Positions 41,045 through 62,136 of a stretch of 64,000 nucleotides of DNA are shown here, in pieces. The notes under the pieces are model-generated. The model searched no databases. It saw nothing but the letters and a program-made list of their open reading frames with translations, and was not told the DNA's origin. Position 1 is the first letter of the stretch, and the number at the start of each line of letters is the position of its first letter. The position numbers were made by a program, and so were the translations under genes. The stretch comes from Eledone cirrhosa (Eukaryota). Where the stretch lies: assembly GCA_964016885.1 (NCBI GenBank), contig CAXHJY010000739.1, positions 69,780 through 133,779 on the forward strand, in the 5' to 3' direction.

Positions 41045-48391
<7,347 letters not shown>

Positions 48392-48600
48392 ATATAAGTA
48401 TGTACACGTACATACATATATGTATACCGACGTACAGTAGTATGTATATATATATATATACATACATGCACACATATATACATGCACGTATGGATTCACC
48501 GAACATTTATTATAATGCTCGGTGTGTTTGTAAACAAACATCCCGTATTAAGCCGTAGTGTCTAGCAACCACCGTTGCTCGTTTGTTCAACACTGACAAA

Positions 48601-48656
48601 GGAACGCTGTACTAGTTTCAAGCTTGTTCAGCTATCGTCAGCAACGTATACCTTCC
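48601..48656 (-). ncRNA. Type I hammerhead ribozyme (representative of 4 minus-strand copies at ~48600, 49025, 49450, 49875)
   Basis: Reverse complement of the motif above: GGAACGCTGTACTAGTTTCAAGCTTGTT(C)AGCTATCGTCAGCAACGTATACCTTCC. Confidence 0.8.
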
Positions 48657-50313
48657 TGCCAGATTGTTGAACGTATATACTTACCTTATGCATATTAACG
48701 GCTGAGTAGCCCAATATGCATATCGAGTGGGTTAATCGGCCGGGTGCACCGAAAACGATAAACGGAAAAAATGAAACGATATTTCATTTCCCACTCTTAG
48801 TACGGTCGTTACTTAAATATAAGTATGTACACGTACATACATATATGTATACCGACGTACAGTAGTATGTATATATATATATATACATACATGCACACAT
48901 ATATACATGCACGTATGGATTCACCGAACATTTATTATAATGCTCGGTGTGTTTGTAAACAAACATCCCGTATTAAGCCGTAGTGTCTAGCAACCACCGT
49001 TGCTCGTTTGTTCAACACTGACAAAGGAACGCTGTACTAGTTTCAAGCTTGTTAGCTATCGTCAGCAACGTATACCTTCCTGCCAGATTGTTGAACGTAT
49101 ATACTTACCTTATGCATATTAACGGCTGAGTAGCCCAATATGCATATCGAGTGGGTTAATCGGCCGGGTGCACCGAAAACGATAAACGGAAAAAATGAAA
49201 CGATATTTCATTTCCCACTCTTAGTACGGCTGTTACTTAAATATAAGTATGTACACGTACATACATATATGTATACCGACGTACAGTAGTATGTATATAT
49301 ATATATATACATACATGCACACATATATACATGCACGTATGGATTCACCGAACATTTATTATAATGCTCGGTTGTGTTTGTAAACAAACATCCGTATTAA
49401 GCCGTAGTGTCTAGCAACCACCGTTGCTCGTTTGTTCAACACTGACCAAAGGAACGCTGTACTAGTTTCAAGCTTGTTAGCTATCGTCAGCACGTATACC
49501 TTCCTGCCAGATTGTTGAACGTATATACTTACCTTATGCATATTAACGGCTGAGTAGCCCAATATGCATATCGAGTGGGTTAATCGGCCGGGTGCACCGA
49601 AAACGATTAAACGGAAAAAATGAAACGATATTTCATTTCCCACTCTTAGTACGGCTGTTACTTAAATATAAGTATGTACACGTACATACATATATGTATA
49701 CCGACGTACAGTAGTATGTATATATATATATATACATACATGCACACATATATACATGCACGTATGGATTCACCGAACATTTATTATAATGCTCGGTGTG
49801 TTTGTAAACAAACATCCCGTATTAAGCCGTAGTGTCTAGCAACCACCGTTGCTCGTTTGTTCAACACTGACAAAGGAACGCTGTACTAGTTTCAAGCTTG
49901 TTAGCTATCGTCAGCAACGTATACCTTCCTGCCAGATTGTTGAACGTATATACTTACCTTATGCATATTAACGGCTGGTTGCTAGACACTACGGCTTAAT
50001 ACGGGATGTTTGTTTACAAACACACCGAGCATTATAATAAATGTTCGGTGAATCCATACGTGCATGTATATATGTGTGCATGTATGTATATATATATATA
50101 TACATACTACTGTACGTCGGTATACATATATGTATGTACGTGTACATACTTATATTTAAGTAACAGCCGTACTAAGAGTGGGAAATGAAATATCGTTTCA
50201 TTTTTTCGTTTATCGTTTTCGGTGCACCCGGCCGATTACCCACTCGATATGCATATTGGGCTACTCAGCCGTTAATATGCATAAGGTAAGTATATACGTT
50301 CAACAATCTGGCA

Positions 50314-50368
50314 GGAAGGTATACGTTGCTGACGATAGCTAACAAGCTTGAAACTAGTACAGCGTTCC
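50314..50368 (+). ncRNA. Type I hammerhead ribozyme (representative; 12 plus-strand copies every ~424 bp up to ~55035)
   Basis: Stem I CGUUG (50324-28)/CAGCG (50360-64) extended by GGAA/UUCC across a bulge; core CUGACGA (50329-35); stem II AGCU-aaca-AGCU; GAAA (50350-53); stem III AC-ua-GU; predicted cleavage after GUA at 50359. Confidence 0.85.
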
Positions 50369-53300
50369 TTTGTCAGTGTTGAACAAACGAGCAACGTGGT
50401 TGCTAGACACTACGGCTTAATACGGGATGTTTGTTTACAAACACACCGAGCATTATAATAAATGTTCGGTGAATCCATACGTGCATGTATATATGTGTGC
50501 ATGTATGTATATATATATATATACATACTACTGTACGTCGGTATACATATATGTATGTACGTGTACATACTTATATTTAAGTAACAGCCGTACTAAGAGT
50601 GGGAAATGAAATATCGTTTCATTTTTTCCGTTTATCGTTTTCGGTGCACCCGGCCGATTAACCCACTCGATATGCATATTGGGCTACTCAGCCGTTAATA
50701 TGCATAAGGTAAGTATATACGTTCAACAATCTGGCAGGAAGGTATACGTTGCTGACGATAGCTAACAAGCTTGAAACTAGTACAGCGTTCCTTTGTCAGT
50801 GTTGAACAAACGAGCAACGGTGGTTGCTAGACACTACGGCTTAATACGGGATGTTTGTTTACAAACACACCGAGCATTATAATAAATGTTCGGTGAATCC
50901 ATACGTGCATGTATATATGTGTGCATGTATGTATATATATATATATACATACTACTGTACGTCGGTATACATATATGTATGTACGTGTACATACTTATAT
51001 TTAAGTAACAGCCGTACTAAGAGTGGGAAATGAAATATCGTTTCATTTTTTCCGTTTATCGTTTTCGGTGCACCCGGCCGATTAACCCACTCGATATGCA
51101 TATTGGGCTACTCAGCCGTTAATATGCATAAGGTAAGTATATACGTTCAACAATCTGGCAGGAAGGTATACGTTGCTGACGATAGCTAACAAGCTTGAAA
51201 CTAGTACAGCGTTCCTTTGTCAGTGTTGAACAAACGAGCAACGGTGGTTGCTAGACACTACGGCTTAATACGGGATGTTTGTTTACAAACACACCGAGCA
51301 TTATAATAAATGTTCGGTGAATCCATACGTGCATGTATATATGTGTGCATGTATGTATATATATATATATACATACTACTGTACGTCGGTATACATATAT
51401 GTATGTACGTGTACATACTTATATTTAAGTAACAGCCGTACTAAGAGTGGGAAATGAAATATCGTTTCATTTTTTCCGTTTATCGTTTTCGGTGCACCCG
51501 GCCGATTAACCCACTCGATATGCATATTGGGCTACTCAGCCGTTAATATGCATAAGGTAAGTATATACGTTCAACAATCTGGCAGGAAGGTATACGTTGC
51601 TGACGATAGCTAACAAGCTTGAAACTAGTACAGCGTTCCTTTGTCAGTGGTTGAACAAACGAGCAACGGGTGGTTGCTAGACACTACGGCTTAATACGGG
51701 ATGTTTGTTTACAAACACACCGAGCATTATAATAAATGTTCGGTGAATCCATACGTGCATGTATATATGTGTGCATGTATGTATATATATATATATACAT
51801 ACTACTGTACGTCGGTATACATATATGTATGTACGTGTACATACTTATATTTAAGTAACAGCCGTACTAAGAGTGGGAAATGAAATATCGTTTCATTTTT
51901 TCCGTTTATCGTTTTCGGTGCACCCGGCCGATTAACCCACTCGATATGCATATTGGGCTACTCAGCCGTTAATATCGCATAAGGTAAGTATATACGTTCA
52001 ACAATCTGGCAGGAAGGTATACGTTGCTGACGATAGCTAACAAGCTTGAAACTAGTACAGCGTTCCTTTGTCAGTGTTGAACAAACGAGCAACGGTGGTT
52101 GCTAGACACTACGGCTTAATACGGGATGTTTGTTTACAAACACACCGAGCATTATAATAAATGTTCGGTGAATCCATACGTGCATGTATATATGTGTGCA
52201 TGTATGTATATATATATATATACATACTACTGTACGTCGGTATACATATATGTAGTACGTGTACATACTTATATTTAAGTAACAGCCGTACTAAGAGTGG
52301 GAAATGAAATATCGTTTCATTTTTTCCGTTTATCGTTTTCCGGTGCACCGGCCGATTAACCCACTCGATATGCATATTGGGCTACTCAGCCGTTAATATG
52401 CATAAGGTAAGTATATACGTTCAACAATCTGGCAGGAAGGTATACGTTGCTGACGATAGCTAACAAGCTTGAAACTAGTACAGCGTTCCTTTGTCAGTGT
52501 TGAACAAACGAGCAACGGTGGTTGCTAGACACTACGGCTTAATACGGGATGTTTGTTTACAAACACACCGAGCATTATAATAAATGTTCGGTGAATCCAT
52601 ACGTGCATGTATATATGTGTGCATGTATGTATATATATATATATACATACTACTGTACGTCGGTATACATATATGTATGTACGTGTACATACTTATATTT
52701 AAGTAACAGCCGTACTAAGAGTGGGAAATGAAATATCGTTTCATTTTTTCCGTTTATCGTTTTCGGTGCACCCCGGCCGATTAACCCACTCGATATGCAT
52801 ATTGGGCTACTCAGCCGTTAATATGCATAAGGTAAGTATATACGTTCAACAATCTGGCAGGAAGGTATACGTTGCTGACGATAGCTAACAAGCTTGAAAC
52901 TAGTACAGCGTTCCTTTGTCAGTGTTGAACAAACGAGCAACGGTGGTTGCTAGACACTACGGCTTAATACGGGATGTTTGTTTACAAACACACCGAGCAT
53001 TATAATAAATGTTCGGTGAATCCATACGTGCATGTATATATGTGTGCATGTATGTATATATATATATATACATACTACTGTACGTCGGTATACATATATG
53101 TATGTACGTGTACATACTTATATTTAAGTAACAGCCGTACTAAGAGTGGGAAATGAATATCGTTTCATTTTTTTCCGTTTATCGTTTTCGGTGCACCCGG
53201 CCGATTAACCCACTCGATATGCATATTGGGCTACTCAGCCGTTAATATGCATAAGGTAAGTATATACGTTCAACAATCTGGCAGGAAGGTATACGTTGCT

Positions 53301-55299
53301 GACGATAGCTAACAAGCTTGAAACTAGTACAGCGTTCCTTTGTCAGTGTTGAACAAACGAGCAACGGTGGTTGCTAGACACTACGGCTTAATACGGGATG
53401 TTTGTTTACAAACACACCGAGCATTATAATAAATGTTCGGTGAATCCATACGTGCATGTATATATGTGTGCATGTATGTATATATATATATATACATACT
53501 ACTGTACGTCGGTATACATATATGTATGTACGTGTACATACTTATATTTAAGTAACAGCCGTACTAAGAGTGGGAAATGAAATATCGTTTCATTTTTTCC
53601 GTTTATCGTTTTCGGGTGCACCCGGCCGATTAACCCACTCGATATGCATATTGGGCTACTCAGCCGTTAATATGCATAAGGTAAGTATATACGTTCAACA
53701 ATCTGGCAGGAAGGTATACGTTGCTGACGATAGCTAACAAGCTTGAAACTAGTACAGCGTTCCTTTGTCAGTGTTGAACAAACGAGCAAACGGTGGTTGC
53801 TAGACACTACGGCTTAATACGGGATGTTTGTTTACAAACACACCGAGCATTATAATAAATGTTCGGTGAATCCATACGGGCATGTATATATGTGTGCATG
53901 TATGTATATATATATATATACATACTACTGTACGTCGGTATACATATATGTATGTACGTGTACATACTTATATTTAAGTAACAGCCGTACTAAGAGTGGG
54001 AAACTGAAATATCGTTTCATTTTTTCCGTTTATCGTTTTCGGTGCACCCGGCCGATTAACCCCACTCGATATGCATATTGGGCTACTCAGCCGTTAATAT
54101 GCATAAGGTAAGTATATCGTTCAACAATCTGGCAGGAAGGTATACGTTGCTGACGATAGCTTAACAAGCTTGAAACTAGTACAGCGTTCCTTTGTCAGTG
54201 TTGAACAAACGAGCAACGGTGGTTGCTAGGACACTACGGCTTAATACGGGATGTTTGTTTACAAACACACCGAGCATTATAATAAATGTTCGGTGATACG
54301 TGCATGTATATATGTGTGCATGTATGTATATATATATATATACATACTACTGTACGTCGGTATACATATATGTATGTACGTGTACATACTTATATTTAAG
54401 TAACAGCCGTACTAAGAGTGGGAAATGAAATATCGTTTCATTTTTTCCGTTTATCGTTTTCGGTGCACCCGGCCGATTAACCCACTCGATATGCATATTG
54501 GGCTACTCAGCCGTTAATATGCATAAGGTAAGTATATACGTTCAACAATCTGGCAGGAAGGTATACGTTGCTGACGATAGCTAACAAGCTTGAAACTAGT
54601 ACAGCGTTCCTTTGTCAGTGTTGAACAAACGAGCAACGGTGGTTGCTAGACACTACGGCTTAATACGGGATGTTTGTTTACAAACACACCGAGCATTATA
54701 ATAAATGTTCGGTGAATCCATACGTGCATGTATATATGTGTGCATGTATGTATATATATATATATACATACTACTGTACGTCGGTATACATATATGTATG
54801 TACGTGTACATACTTATATTTAAGTAACAGCCGTACTAAGAGTGGGAAATGAAATATCGTTTCATTTTTTCCGTTTATCGTTTTCGGTGCACCCGGCCGA
54901 TTAACCCACTCGATATGCATATTGGGCTACTCAGCCGTTAATATGCATAAGGTAAGTATATACGTTCAACAATCTGGCAGGAAGGTATACGTTGCTGACG
55001 ATAGCTAACAAGCTTGAAACTAGTACAGCGTTCCTTTGTCAGTGTTGAACAAACGAGCAACGGTGGTTGCTAGACACTACGGCTTAATACGGGATGTTTG
55101 TTTACAAACACACCGAGCATTATAATAAATGTTCGGTGAATCCATACGTGCATGTATATATGTGTGCATGTATGTATATATATATATATACATACTACTG
55201 TACGTCGGTATACATATATGTATGTACGTGTACATACTTATATTTAAGTAACAGCCGTACTAAGAGTGGGAAATGAAATATCGTTTCATTTTTTCCGTT

Positions 55300-55330
<31 letters not shown>

Positions 55331-55359
55331 ATATATATATATATATATGTATATGTATA

Positions 55360-57776
55360 TTTACTCTTTTACTCTTTTACCTGTTTCAGCCATCCGGCTG
55401 AGGCCATGCTGGGGCACCGCCCTTGTTGCTACACATTTTATCTCCAGCCTGTATAGGTTGGCCACTGGTGTAGGAGGGAGTTTGTTGCTGCTGCCCTTAG
55501 GTTTCCCTCGTGTCTTGCTGTGGGCTCATCCGGGATCCTGGATAACAAGGTGTCGAGATGTTTCTTAAAGACATCCACCTCCACGTCATGCAAGTCTCGC
55601 AGATGCCTCGGCAGCCTGTTGAAGAGTTGAGGGCCCTTGAATCCCAGGCTATTGCAATACCTGCTCCTTATTCTAGATGTGGAAGACGGGACCTTTGGCA
55701 CCACACAGTGACGTCCTGTTCGACGGTTGGTCCAGCTCCCAATGCCAAAGTTTGGTGCTAGTCCCTCCAGGATTTTCCACATGTAGATCACTGCGTATCT
55801 CTCCCGTCTTCGCTCCAAGGAGTAGAGGTTCAGTTCCTTCAGCCTCTCCCAGTAGCTTGTCTCCCTCATCTTGGCAATCCTCTTGGTGTAGCTTCGCTGG
55901 ATTGCCTCAAGCTCTGTGGTTAGTTTGACACTATGGGGTGACCACAGCTGGGAGCAGTAGTCCAGGCGGCTTAGGACAAAAGTCCTCCACAGTGTCAACA
56001 TGGTGTCTCGATCTCTTGTAAGGAAAGTCCTCAAGATCCAGCCAGCGAATCGTCTACATGCTGTCGCCACCTTCATGATGTGTGAAGAAAAAGATGCATC
56101 ATCGCTCATGTCTATGCCCAGGTCTCGTATCGATTTTGACACGGGGATATCGGTCCCTCCTGGTCCTGTGTAGCTGTGTTCCGCTATATTTGTGTTTGTG
56201 TTTGCAGGTTTGTATTGTAGGGCTTGGAATTTGCCAGCATTAAACTGCATGTTGTTTTCTTCCGCCCATCTGTATATGGCATCCAGATCCTGCTGTAAGA
56301 GGGCAGCGTCAGCCGGGTTATTGATTGCCTGTGCTACCTTAGTGTCATCAGCATAGCTAGTGAGGGATGTTGTTGCATGCACCACAGAGGGCATGTCCGA
56401 GAGAGCCACCAAAAACAGTAGTGGTCCCAGGACTGTCCCCTGAGGCACCCCACTTGTTATCGGTGTTTCCCTCGAGAGGGCCCCATTTGCTGCGACTGCC
56501 TGGCTTCTGTCCCTCAGGAAGCCATGCAGCCACTCACCTACTTTTCCAGTTATGCCGAGTCCGTGTAGTTTGTGACATATCATTCCGTGGTCGACCTTGT
56601 CAAAGGCCTTCGCAAAGTCAAGATATATCACGTCTACATGTGAGCTGTCTAGTAGCTGTCTCAGTACCCAGTCGTAGTGATGTAGCAGCTGTGTAAGGCA
56701 GCTTCTTCCTGGGCGGAAGCCATGTTGCGTGCTAGTCAGGCGGTCATTTTCTTCGAGGAAAGTGATTAGTTTCTTTCTGACGACTCGCTCCATGACCTTA
56801 CTGATATGCGACGTCAGGGAGACTGGCCTATAGTTCTTGGCCTCCGCTCTACTACCTCCTTTATGGATAGGGCATATTGTGCCTTCTTTCAGCTCCCTGG
56901 GTAGTACACCGCTAGCCAAGGAGCTTCTGAAGAGCATCTTCAGTGGAGTTGCTAAGGCCCGCTTACATATTTTTAGGAGAACTGCTGGGAATCCATCAGG
57001 TCCAGCAGCCGAGTCTGTTCTAATTTCATCAATGGCGTACACCACATCCTCCTCCGTTATGTCTATGTGGTTGATGGTTGCCATTTCTTGATGTAGTGTT
57101 GTGGCATCAAAGAACTCCTCTGGCTTCGTTATTTGCATGTGCCTCAGTGGACATGTGAAGACACTTTTGTACTGTTCGTTCAGTATTTCACATATCTCTT
57201 GGGGATTTTCGGTTAATGAACCGTCCGTGTGGAAGAGTGGTCCAATCTTGCAGTGTACTGAGGCAGTTTCTTTTGCAAATTTAAAGAAGGCCTTAGGGTT
57301 TGTTTTAATGTTTTCTATGGCCCTGTTCTCTTTCCTTGCCCTCTCATTCTCATGTGAAAGCTTGAGTGCAATCTCGGTGTCAAGTAGTGCACGTTTCAAA
57401 TAGGATTCCTTCTTGTTTTGGTTTTGTTGACTATTCAACTGGTTTGAGAGTTTAGTTCTACGTCTCATAAGGATTTTCCTATCTCTGGGAATAAGATTTT
57501 TGTGTCTGTTTGCCTCTTTCTCCGGGACACACTTTTTGCATATGGTGTGTATCGTTGTCATGAAGTGTTGAAATTGTGTGTTAGTGTCTTGTGTGGCGAT
57601 GTTTGCACTCCATGTTTGCTTCCGGATTTCACTCTTAATCTTCTTCCAGTCAGCCCCGTAGAAGTTAAGGCTGGATAGCGTCCCGGAGCTTCTTGGTGGT
57701 TTTGTCTCTGTTGGTTCTCTTGGACCACATATCATTAGCTCTACCAAGTTATGATCCGAGAGAATTGTTGTATTGT
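55360..57776 (-). mobile_element. CR1-clade LINE, 5'-truncated, RT reading frame intact
   Basis: Open frame from SDHNLV (end of APE) through [48 protein letters not shown] and YADDTK to the stop at 55438. Ends in a (GAGTAAAA)n tail, with (TA)n on both sides. Confidence 0.95.

Positions 57777-58375: not shown

Positions 58376-58428
<53 letters not shown>
57777..58428. repeat. (TA)n/(TATG) microsatellite
   Basis: Direct reading. Confidence 0.95.
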
Positions 58429-59308
58429 GTCGTTTCTGAATTTGTTTAGCAAGATTCTTTATCTGAAATCGTGTGTTGAAACCGATATTGTTATACTTTG
58501 GGAGGGTCATGTTGCCAATAAGAAACACACGCACCAGTTGCTTTCACTTCAATTTAATTTAATATATATTTATAAATTTACAAATTTATAAATTTCTGGT
58601 TGGTTGGTTGGTTCCACAACCAGATAGTTGTTTATATATATATATAGTCATAGTTCTTTCGTCACACACTCATAGAAATAAAAATAGAATCCACACACAA
58701 GAAAGACGCAATGTTTAGGCAAATTACAGAGGCAGTAAGCATAAAAGAATTAAAACCAAAATTAAATAGAAAATATGAGTGGAACAGCAACATCACAACT
58801 TACAATTAAGGACAAAATGAAAACACACACACACATAGAACAAACAACTTACAATTGAAAACACACACAAAATGAAAACACACACAAGACAAAATGAAAA
58901 CACACACACACATAGAACAAACAACCAACCAACAATAAATAAATAAATAAACAAACAAATATAAATAGAAAAATAGAAAAATGAACACAAACACACACAG
59001 ACACCCGGATGTGGCGCATGCGCAAACTGAGCACGCAACCCACACACAAACAAAATGGCGTAGGATAGAAGAAAGGAAAGGCACAGAAACGAAGAAAGAA
59101 ATCCCCAGTCACTGAAGAGGTCACAGAGTGTGTGACGAAAGAACTATGACTATATATATATATAAACAACTATCTGGTTGTGGAACCAACCAACCAGAAA
59201 TTTATAAATTTGTAAATTTATAAATATATATTAAATTAAATTGAAGTGAAAGCAACTGGTGCGTGTGTTTCTTATTGGCAACATGACCCTCCCAAAGTAT
59301 AACAATAT
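58429..59308 (+). mobile_element. Penelope-like pseudo-LTR remnant with an inverted partial copy at its 5' side
   Basis: 58485-58671 is an almost perfect inverted copy of 59126-59308. It contains a minimal hammerhead followed by a putative ORF start ([20 protein letters not shown] in the longer left arm). Flanked by (TA)n. Confidence 0.75.
59107..59151 (+). ncRNA. Minimal type I hammerhead ribozyme (Penelope-type)
   Basis: AGUCA-CUGAAGA-g-GUCAC-agagugu-GUGAC-GAAA-G-aa-CUA^UGACU: stem I AGUCA/UGACU, 5-6 bp stem II, 2-bp stem III, predicted cut after 59146. Confidence 0.8.

Positions 59309-62136
<2,828 letters not shown>

Follow-up and report, generated by a model that had tools for sequence, protein, structure and literature searches.

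The window analysed here, a stretch of 64,000 nucleotides from Eledone cirrhosa (assembly GCA_964016885.1, contig CAXHJY010000739.1, positions 69,780 to 133,779), contains a tandem array of ~6.9 kb in which copies of a 424-bp non-coding repeat are arranged in two arms of opposite orientation. We consider it highly probable that this array is one young insertion of a retrozyme that lacks long terminal repeats (a non-LTR retrozyme), and that its arms were started at two fixed sites of the unit by two-sided priming of a Penelope-like element (PLE) enzyme in a (TA)n tract. What is observed is head-to-head arms, outer ends at two sites (A and B), inner junctions rich in microhomology, (TA)n flanks, scarless and nearly identical copies, and arms that mostly agree with each other. 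An earlier note on this DNA had proposed a single recent insertion event, with priming by TA DNA on either side, rather than unequal crossing-over, and this proposal is supported by the recurrence of the same two-armed anatomy across the genome.

The tandem period of the array is 424-425 bp and its GC content is ~0.38. Unit positions are numbered from a predicted hammerhead cleavage site, and one modal unit of 424 nt lies at 50783..51206 on the plus strand. The left arm (48392..49977, minus strand) comprises 3.7 units and extends from an inner 5' end at unit position 331 to an outer 3' end at position 218, which is site A. The right arm (49976..55302, plus strand) comprises 12.6 units, with its inner 5' end at position 39 and its outer 3' end at position 277, which is site B; the end coordinate of 51560 given in the earlier note cuts through this arm. 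The two arms meet head-to-head (5'-5') at 49976..49977, where position 331 is joined to position 39 by exactly the 2-nt TG overlap that had been reported, inside an imperfect 7-of-8 match (AACGGCTG vs AACGG-TG). The outer ends pass into (TA)n via TATAT (48392) and TAT (55302), also as reported. The left part of the target tract is a TA-rich microsatellite of 7.3 kb (41046..48391), the right part is a short TA-rich tract (55303..55360), and both carry G on the plus strand, that is, they have one polarity. The 59 nt between the two sites (unit positions 219-277; 55244..55302, plus strand) form a 'tail' that only one arm has, at its outer end, and that contains a hairpin in common with sister families.

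Over both arms there are 28 differences from the modal unit, none of them common to two copies. As the earlier note had seen, most (25) are single-base indels; the remaining three are a substitution, a swap of 2 nt and a deletion of 5 nt. Some arrays on large contigs lack indels altogether (J111), and these unshared indels therefore have the appearance of consensus errors in what would be a very young insertion. No open reading frame (ORF) of at least 150 aa lies within the array, nor any ORF with reverse transcriptase (RT) and GIY-YIG domains, and the element is therefore, by its sequence, non-autonomous and not an autonomous PLE.

Two samples of loci were used. The first consisted of 20 of the 25 loci listed in a similarity search (one more joined the second sample and four were added later), while the second took 39 of the first 41 loci of contig C1 in an exact-match list, which together with L047 make 40 loci chosen regardless of orientation. 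A head-to-head pair occurs at 24 of the 40 loci of this orientation-blind set and a tiny opposite arm at two more, and the 60 stretches contain 50 head-to-head pairs versus no adjacent tail-to-tail pair. An apparent tail-to-tail arrangement at L046 (contig C1, 253.18 Mb) proved to be a scaffolding join, with a 200-N gap between the opposite arms, and not a feature of the insertion. At L054, two-armed insertions are each present twice with identical junctions, within a local segmental duplication; dropping the two duplicated pairs leaves 48 distinct ones.

The outer ends of the arms are fixed. In the 60 stretches 86 of 107 arm 3' ends fall exactly at position 218 (36 ends) or 277 (50 ends), and not at the arbitrary unit positions that had been supposed. 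Permuted end-points set by microhomology are likewise not supported, although TAT/ATA homology is available at 54 of the 424 unit positions, among them a far longer TA run inside the unit that seldom serves as an end. TA flanks accompany nearly all A and B ends, with a median tract of 52 nt on either side. Of the features for which the earlier note had suggested surveying other loci, the TA flanks and the inversions recur and the permuted end-points do not; and of the two features that it had named jointly as evidence against its model, fixed unit boundaries are seen, while the absence of TA flanks is not. Sister families have their ends at equivalent sites.

Furthermore, the two sites are used as a pair. 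The 48 distinct pairs comprise 36 A/B, no A/A and one B/B (L090, rearranged), together with nine that have one end elsewhere and two that are cut. One of the two cut pairs, L043, was later resolved as B/A; of the pairs then added, J111, L109 and L113 are mixed and L110 is cut. Mixed A/B pairs thus make up 40 of the 41 pairs with both ends at the main sites (P ~2e-11 if the ends were independent), and in the orientation-blind set alone 20 of 26 pairs are mixed, one is B/B and five have one end elsewhere. The arm lengths of pairs are uncorrelated (rho 0.22, p = 0.20).

This anatomy resembles that of endonuclease-positive PLEs. PLE insertions carry an inverted 5'-truncated copy in head-to-head orientation and a tail of 30-40 nt at one end (PMC8557442, PMC3846280), the tail being found on one of the inverted pseudo-long terminal repeats (pLTRs; PMC3846280, PMC8557442), and (TA)n targets are reported for the Naiad and Hydra clades (PMC8557442). 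The same signature is present here, namely an inverted 5'-truncated head-to-head copy, a tail on one end only and a (TA)n target. In addition, a purified PLE RT protein, which is predicted to dimerise, initiates at two neighbouring positions on the RNA that delimit the tail, and cuts and extends both strands (PMC11167929); as in our unit, a hammerhead lies upstream of the tail (PMC8557442, PMC3846280, PMC11167929). Unlike the PLEs described in these sources, the present elements have no ORF and both arms are concatemers of up to ~20 units, as opposed to partial tandems, and a pLTR homologous to the unit was not found in the 27 PLE-bearing loci examined. A likeness to non-autonomous Chlamys PLEs such as MRC1 is also apparent; these travel as passengers of PLEs and are often found as multicopy insertions in head-to-tail order (PMC8557442, PMC9940879).

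The fixed ends strengthen the Penelope reading, which was one of the two inversion modes offered in the earlier note. The other was twin priming. During LINE-1 twin priming two primers on opposite strands generate an inversion with microhomology at the junction; one primer acts at the poly(A) end, the second at a variable internal site beside the inversion point, and the arms do not overlap. Here, by contrast, neither start site varies, and one sequence is copied many times over into each arm. L1-style twin priming is at odds with this pattern, since the outer end of the inverted arm is fixed and unrelated to the inner end of the other arm, and the inner ends are spread.

An element of the same anatomy lies 3 kb from the array. 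The control element at 58426..59312, situated in (TA)n, is a head-to-head 5'-truncated copy of a PLE-like coding family, with a hammerhead at ~59112 (plus strand); its left arm alone bears a tail, of ~58 nt. Longer copies of this family have YVDD (RT) and GIY-YIG-like motifs upstream, and the endonuclease gives a weak match (E = 4e-5) to a Pfam-confirmed PLE. All six head-to-head pairs of the control family are A/B, with tails of ~56-65 nt. The control supports the anatomy only. A partner of the 424-bp family was looked for with blast at low stringency and by scanning PLE-bearing loci for hammerheads, and none was found. The genome assembly is rich in PLEs, with 10,596 GIY-YIG candidates, and RT together with GIY-YIG was seen in L114 and L124. 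Similarity of the unit to 15 endonuclease loci amounts to one 13-mer, and at 12 long-ORF loci the hammerheads beside the ORFs differ from that of the unit. In another PLE family (L067, L124) two copies end ~37 nt apart into (TA)n, which is near the published tail length.

The repeat unit itself has the sequence features of metazoan non-LTR retrozymes. Each unit contains one type I hammerhead motif (in the modal example at 51157..51221, plus strand, with predicted cleavage after GUA at 51206), composed of a CUGACGA core, helix II, GAAA and a 2-bp helix III with palindromic ACUAGU. The core and all three helices are recognisable in the sequence. There are 12 such motifs in the right arm and four in the left, and the motif strand reads outward in both; the claim of the earlier note on the array leaves the motif unmentioned, and the hammerhead is therefore an addition to it. 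Among 16 variants from this and the sister families 90.8% of cells pair, the core is invariant, and two-sided changes occur at 9 of 21 hammerhead pairs. The covariation is 0.34, compared to at most 0.094 for slid controls, which are the fairer comparison given that the rows are related sequences and the structure was drawn by hand. A permuted unit (50725-51148) shows strong predicted self-pairing (z = -6.59). An exact hammerhead 37-mer has 1,809 copies in the genome assembly (control 0), and a broader hammerhead pattern, sister families included, has 36,020 matches. The repeat is dispersed over many loci without LTR framing, the arms running straight into (TA)n; its units are tandem, non-coding and within ~150-450 bp, with GC <50%. 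Published metazoan non-LTR retrozymes are similarly built of non-coding repeats in tandem, each a few hundred bases long, low in GC and provided with one type I hammerhead with a short helix III, and are found at many loci and together with PLEs (PMC7229834, 10.64898/2026.07.22.740005). Cleavage and circular RNA have been demonstrated for retrozymes of other species, whereas here the cleavage is predicted and the circle plausible.

In sister hammerhead families with units of ~467 and ~510 nt the hairpin of the tail is homologous and the A and B ends lie at equivalent sites (loci L077 6900-8400, L113, L124 7500-9950 and L126-L155). Parts of the unit also occur in sequencing runs of 14 other organisms (X4-X18), with shares of 0.15-0.61. 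Three of these runs were compared with the unit, and matching contigs were found in two (X4, X8), while X13 and X19 yielded nothing. In X8 loose TA ends at site B are present in two contigs, a weak hint that this end is conserved across organisms. The run search with the unit returned no RNA run among the matches listed.

As to what was copied, the two arms of a pair are usually concordant. At 21 diagnostic sites they disagree in 19 of 686 comparisons (2.8%) versus 27.6% after shuffling, none of 2000 shuffles being as low, and in the orientation-blind set 17 of 356 comparisons are discordant versus 27.2%. Young multi-unit pairs with a non-modal marker have it in both arms in eight cases and differ in two (J043, L051). 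The same non-modal variant runs across the copies of both arms in L058, L048, L050, J111, L109 and L110, and the TA-run length is mostly equal in both arms of L033 and L047. The arms appear usually, but not always, to derive from one RNA or one source. At L058 two A-to-G changes (positions 97 and 346) are present in every copy of both arms; as a conjecture, these could reflect editing of the template RNA.

Shared variants in oppositely oriented arms also bear on the scenario of a recent preprint (10.64898/2026.07.22.740005), in which arrays grow by local amplification; applied here, short two-armed insertions would have been enlarged later by unequal crossing-over. We regard this as unlikely for the young arrays and favour multi-unit insertion instead. 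In young multi-unit arms substitutions are absent or few, and each is a singleton; 18 of 35 A/B pairs have more than one unit in both arms, and the loci concerned, dozens of them, are dispersed and belong to the youngest subfamily. The old arrays J059 and J061 speak for the scenario, as they hold repeated shared-variant blocks of a kind typical of local duplication, and a block of C398T at J043 could be another such expansion. The old arrays L059+L108 and L061+L062, of 42.6 and 35 units with 92-97% identity and repeated variant blocks, suggest later, satellite-like local expansion.

Full copies cross the cleavage site without scars, and the longest young arm has 20.6 units, which together favour a circle over jumping between cut monomers. 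A circular RNA template, as envisaged in the earlier note, is plausible, and a circular monomer is modestly preferred over uncleaved multimeric transcripts, although the latter may be compatible with scarless long arms as well.

Several points weigh against retrozyme insertion by two-sided PLE priming, or against the circle in particular. The target-site duplication is unreadable within the (TA)n microsatellite at the window locus. An Rfam scan of 48300-51600 gave no hammerhead match at E up to 1, and the predicted fold of the isolated hammerhead motif does not surpass that of shuffled sequences (z = -0.58). The tail has 59 nt versus 30-40 nt in PLEs (PMC8557442, PMC3846280), and that of the control family, although similar in length, looks unrelated in sequence to the 424-bp unit. 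No PLE similar to the unit was found among the 15 endonuclease and 12 long-ORF loci, that is, 27 of ~10,596 candidates. Four sequencing runs of the best-matching organism, maybe from other individuals, hold no read or contig piece bridging the window junction among those listed. With regard to the template, one arm of J043 (L043/L106; contig C1, 392.886-392.895 Mb) consists of 422-nt units with C398, while its A arm has units of 424 nt, the outer 13 copies carrying T398 and the inner three C398, a change within the arm that reflects either a template switch or later conversion. At L051, G286C is restricted to one arm. Because of these differences one circle cannot explain every insertion; conversely, concordant arms could stem from two RNAs of one source locus. 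Moreover, uncleaved RNA is the dominant PLE substrate in vitro, which favours linear multimers (PMC11167929).

These latter points lead to an explanation that differs from the favoured one only in the form of the template, namely two-sided PLE priming on linear multimeric transcripts, of one or two molecules. We hold it to be a real possibility, albeit the less probable one. The need for at least two templates, or later conversion, at J043 and L051, the in vitro preference just cited and the existence of arrays of 42.6 and 35 units would all suit it, and so would the mild enrichment of inner ends just 3' of the cleavage site (positions 1-20; 11 of 104, p = 0.01), a clustering that is weak and not significant in a scan (p = 0.31). 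The longest arrays are, however, old and heterogeneous (92-97%), and unfit as templates for homogeneous young arms. About 20 identical units would presumably require ~20 uncleaved hammerheads per transcript, and 5' truncation should shrink the arrays in every generation.

In contrast to the outer ends, the inner junctions are scattered round the unit. Among 27 young junctions 12 have inserted bases and 15 are insert-free, and exact microhomology of at least 2 nt occurs in 12 of these 15, against an expectation of 0.18 (p = 4e-7), which would fit the end joining of two 5'-truncated cDNAs. It has been proposed for PLEs that a cDNA primes itself (PMC3846280) and that the ends are resolved by the endonuclease (PMC8557442). 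Transferred to the present arrays, one cDNA would fold back so that the inverted arm copies the first, with the tail arising by endonuclease resolution. Such a route predicts arm concordance, some junctions lie in natural hairpins (L032, L051, L076), and near-palindromic junctions with inner ends up to 20 nt apart are in slight excess (9 of 48 versus 4.6 expected, p = 0.04). Most inner ends are nevertheless far apart, including those of the window junction (331/39), at L073 and L079 each arm holds sequence missing from the other so that neither is contained in its partner, the arms of J043 differ, and either arm may be the longer (B in 23 of 35 A/B pairs). Fold-back is thus improbable and, as a general route, largely refuted; a minority of junctions may still have arisen by it.

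The alternative that the earlier note had kept in view, a chimera of the assembly or a read folded back on itself, is very improbable as the origin of the window junction. The contig is small, unshared indels are numerous in the arms, the genome assembly has a single copy of the junction 30-mer, and a bridging piece is missing from those listed for the four runs. A search of the assembly for a second copy or an empty allele of the window locus found none. Yet positions 331 and 39 do not make a fold-back point, comparison of the left and right flanks gave no match, so the flanks are not mirror images, and the TA tracts keep one G polarity. The ends also obey the A/B rule of the family, which is unlikely for an artefact, and equivalent structures, with copies free of indels, are present on contigs of chromosome scale (J111). 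That the whole family is an artefact of assembly is ruled out. The idea that the TA flanks themselves were made by the RT, which predicts mirror polarity, was rejected (9 same versus 4 mirror polarity); the polarity is the same in all five cases made up of this window and of the loci whose tracts are long and skewed on either flank.

Retrozyme insertion by two-sided PLE priming could proceed as follows. A Penelope-like RT-endonuclease would cleave a (TA)n tract on each of its strands, and reverse transcription would be primed at site A on one strand and at site B, 59 nt apart, on the other, with a TA match of 3-5 nt at each end likely aiding priming without choosing the site. Each enzyme would then copy many units, probably by circling a monomer made by hammerhead cleavage and ligation, and microhomology-mediated end joining, followed by fill-in, would link the two cDNA 3' ends. 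That PLEs copy the circular RNA of retrozymes has been proposed before (PMC7229834, Cervera and de la Pena 2020; 10.64898/2026.07.22.740005, Li, Clavereau and Pollet). A stronger form of the model holds that an asymmetric pair of PLE enzymes on a ribozyme-made circle always fires two rolling-circle reverse transcriptions ~60 nt apart, one per strand, and can switch template in mid-arm, so that thousands of arrays would record the retrozyme life cycle and explain the PLE tail; this remains tentative, and we lean slightly against it in so general a form.

How animal retrozymes move, and how the inverted ends and the tail of PLEs originate, are open questions in the papers cited here. The accessible parts of the retrozyme papers base the link to PLEs on co-occurrence, shared hammerheads and pLTR phylogeny, and do not describe head-to-head multi-unit arms with two fixed, paired ends (PMC7229834, 10.64898/2026.07.22.740005). 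The present insertions tie retrozymes to PLEs by insertion anatomy instead of co-occurrence, and suggest that the two start sites known in vitro act together, with one on each strand. A literature search, with subscription papers and supplements mostly outside its reach, returned no paper on two-armed retrozyme insertions with paired ends. While the components were already known, the pairing statistics, the coding PLE-like control 3 kb away and the two loci with more than one template are new, and a 59-nt cis-element together with a very young and abundant family become available for direct assay.

Two minor features of the window complete the description. The 103 Rfam matches, consisting of miRNA models on a TA-rich hairpin and one snoRNA model, are all below the gathering score and were attributed to chance. 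In the right flank, a LINE-type RT reading frame (55438-57735, minus strand; RVT_1, E = 5e-30) lies between two TA tracts, the next of which starts at ~57776.

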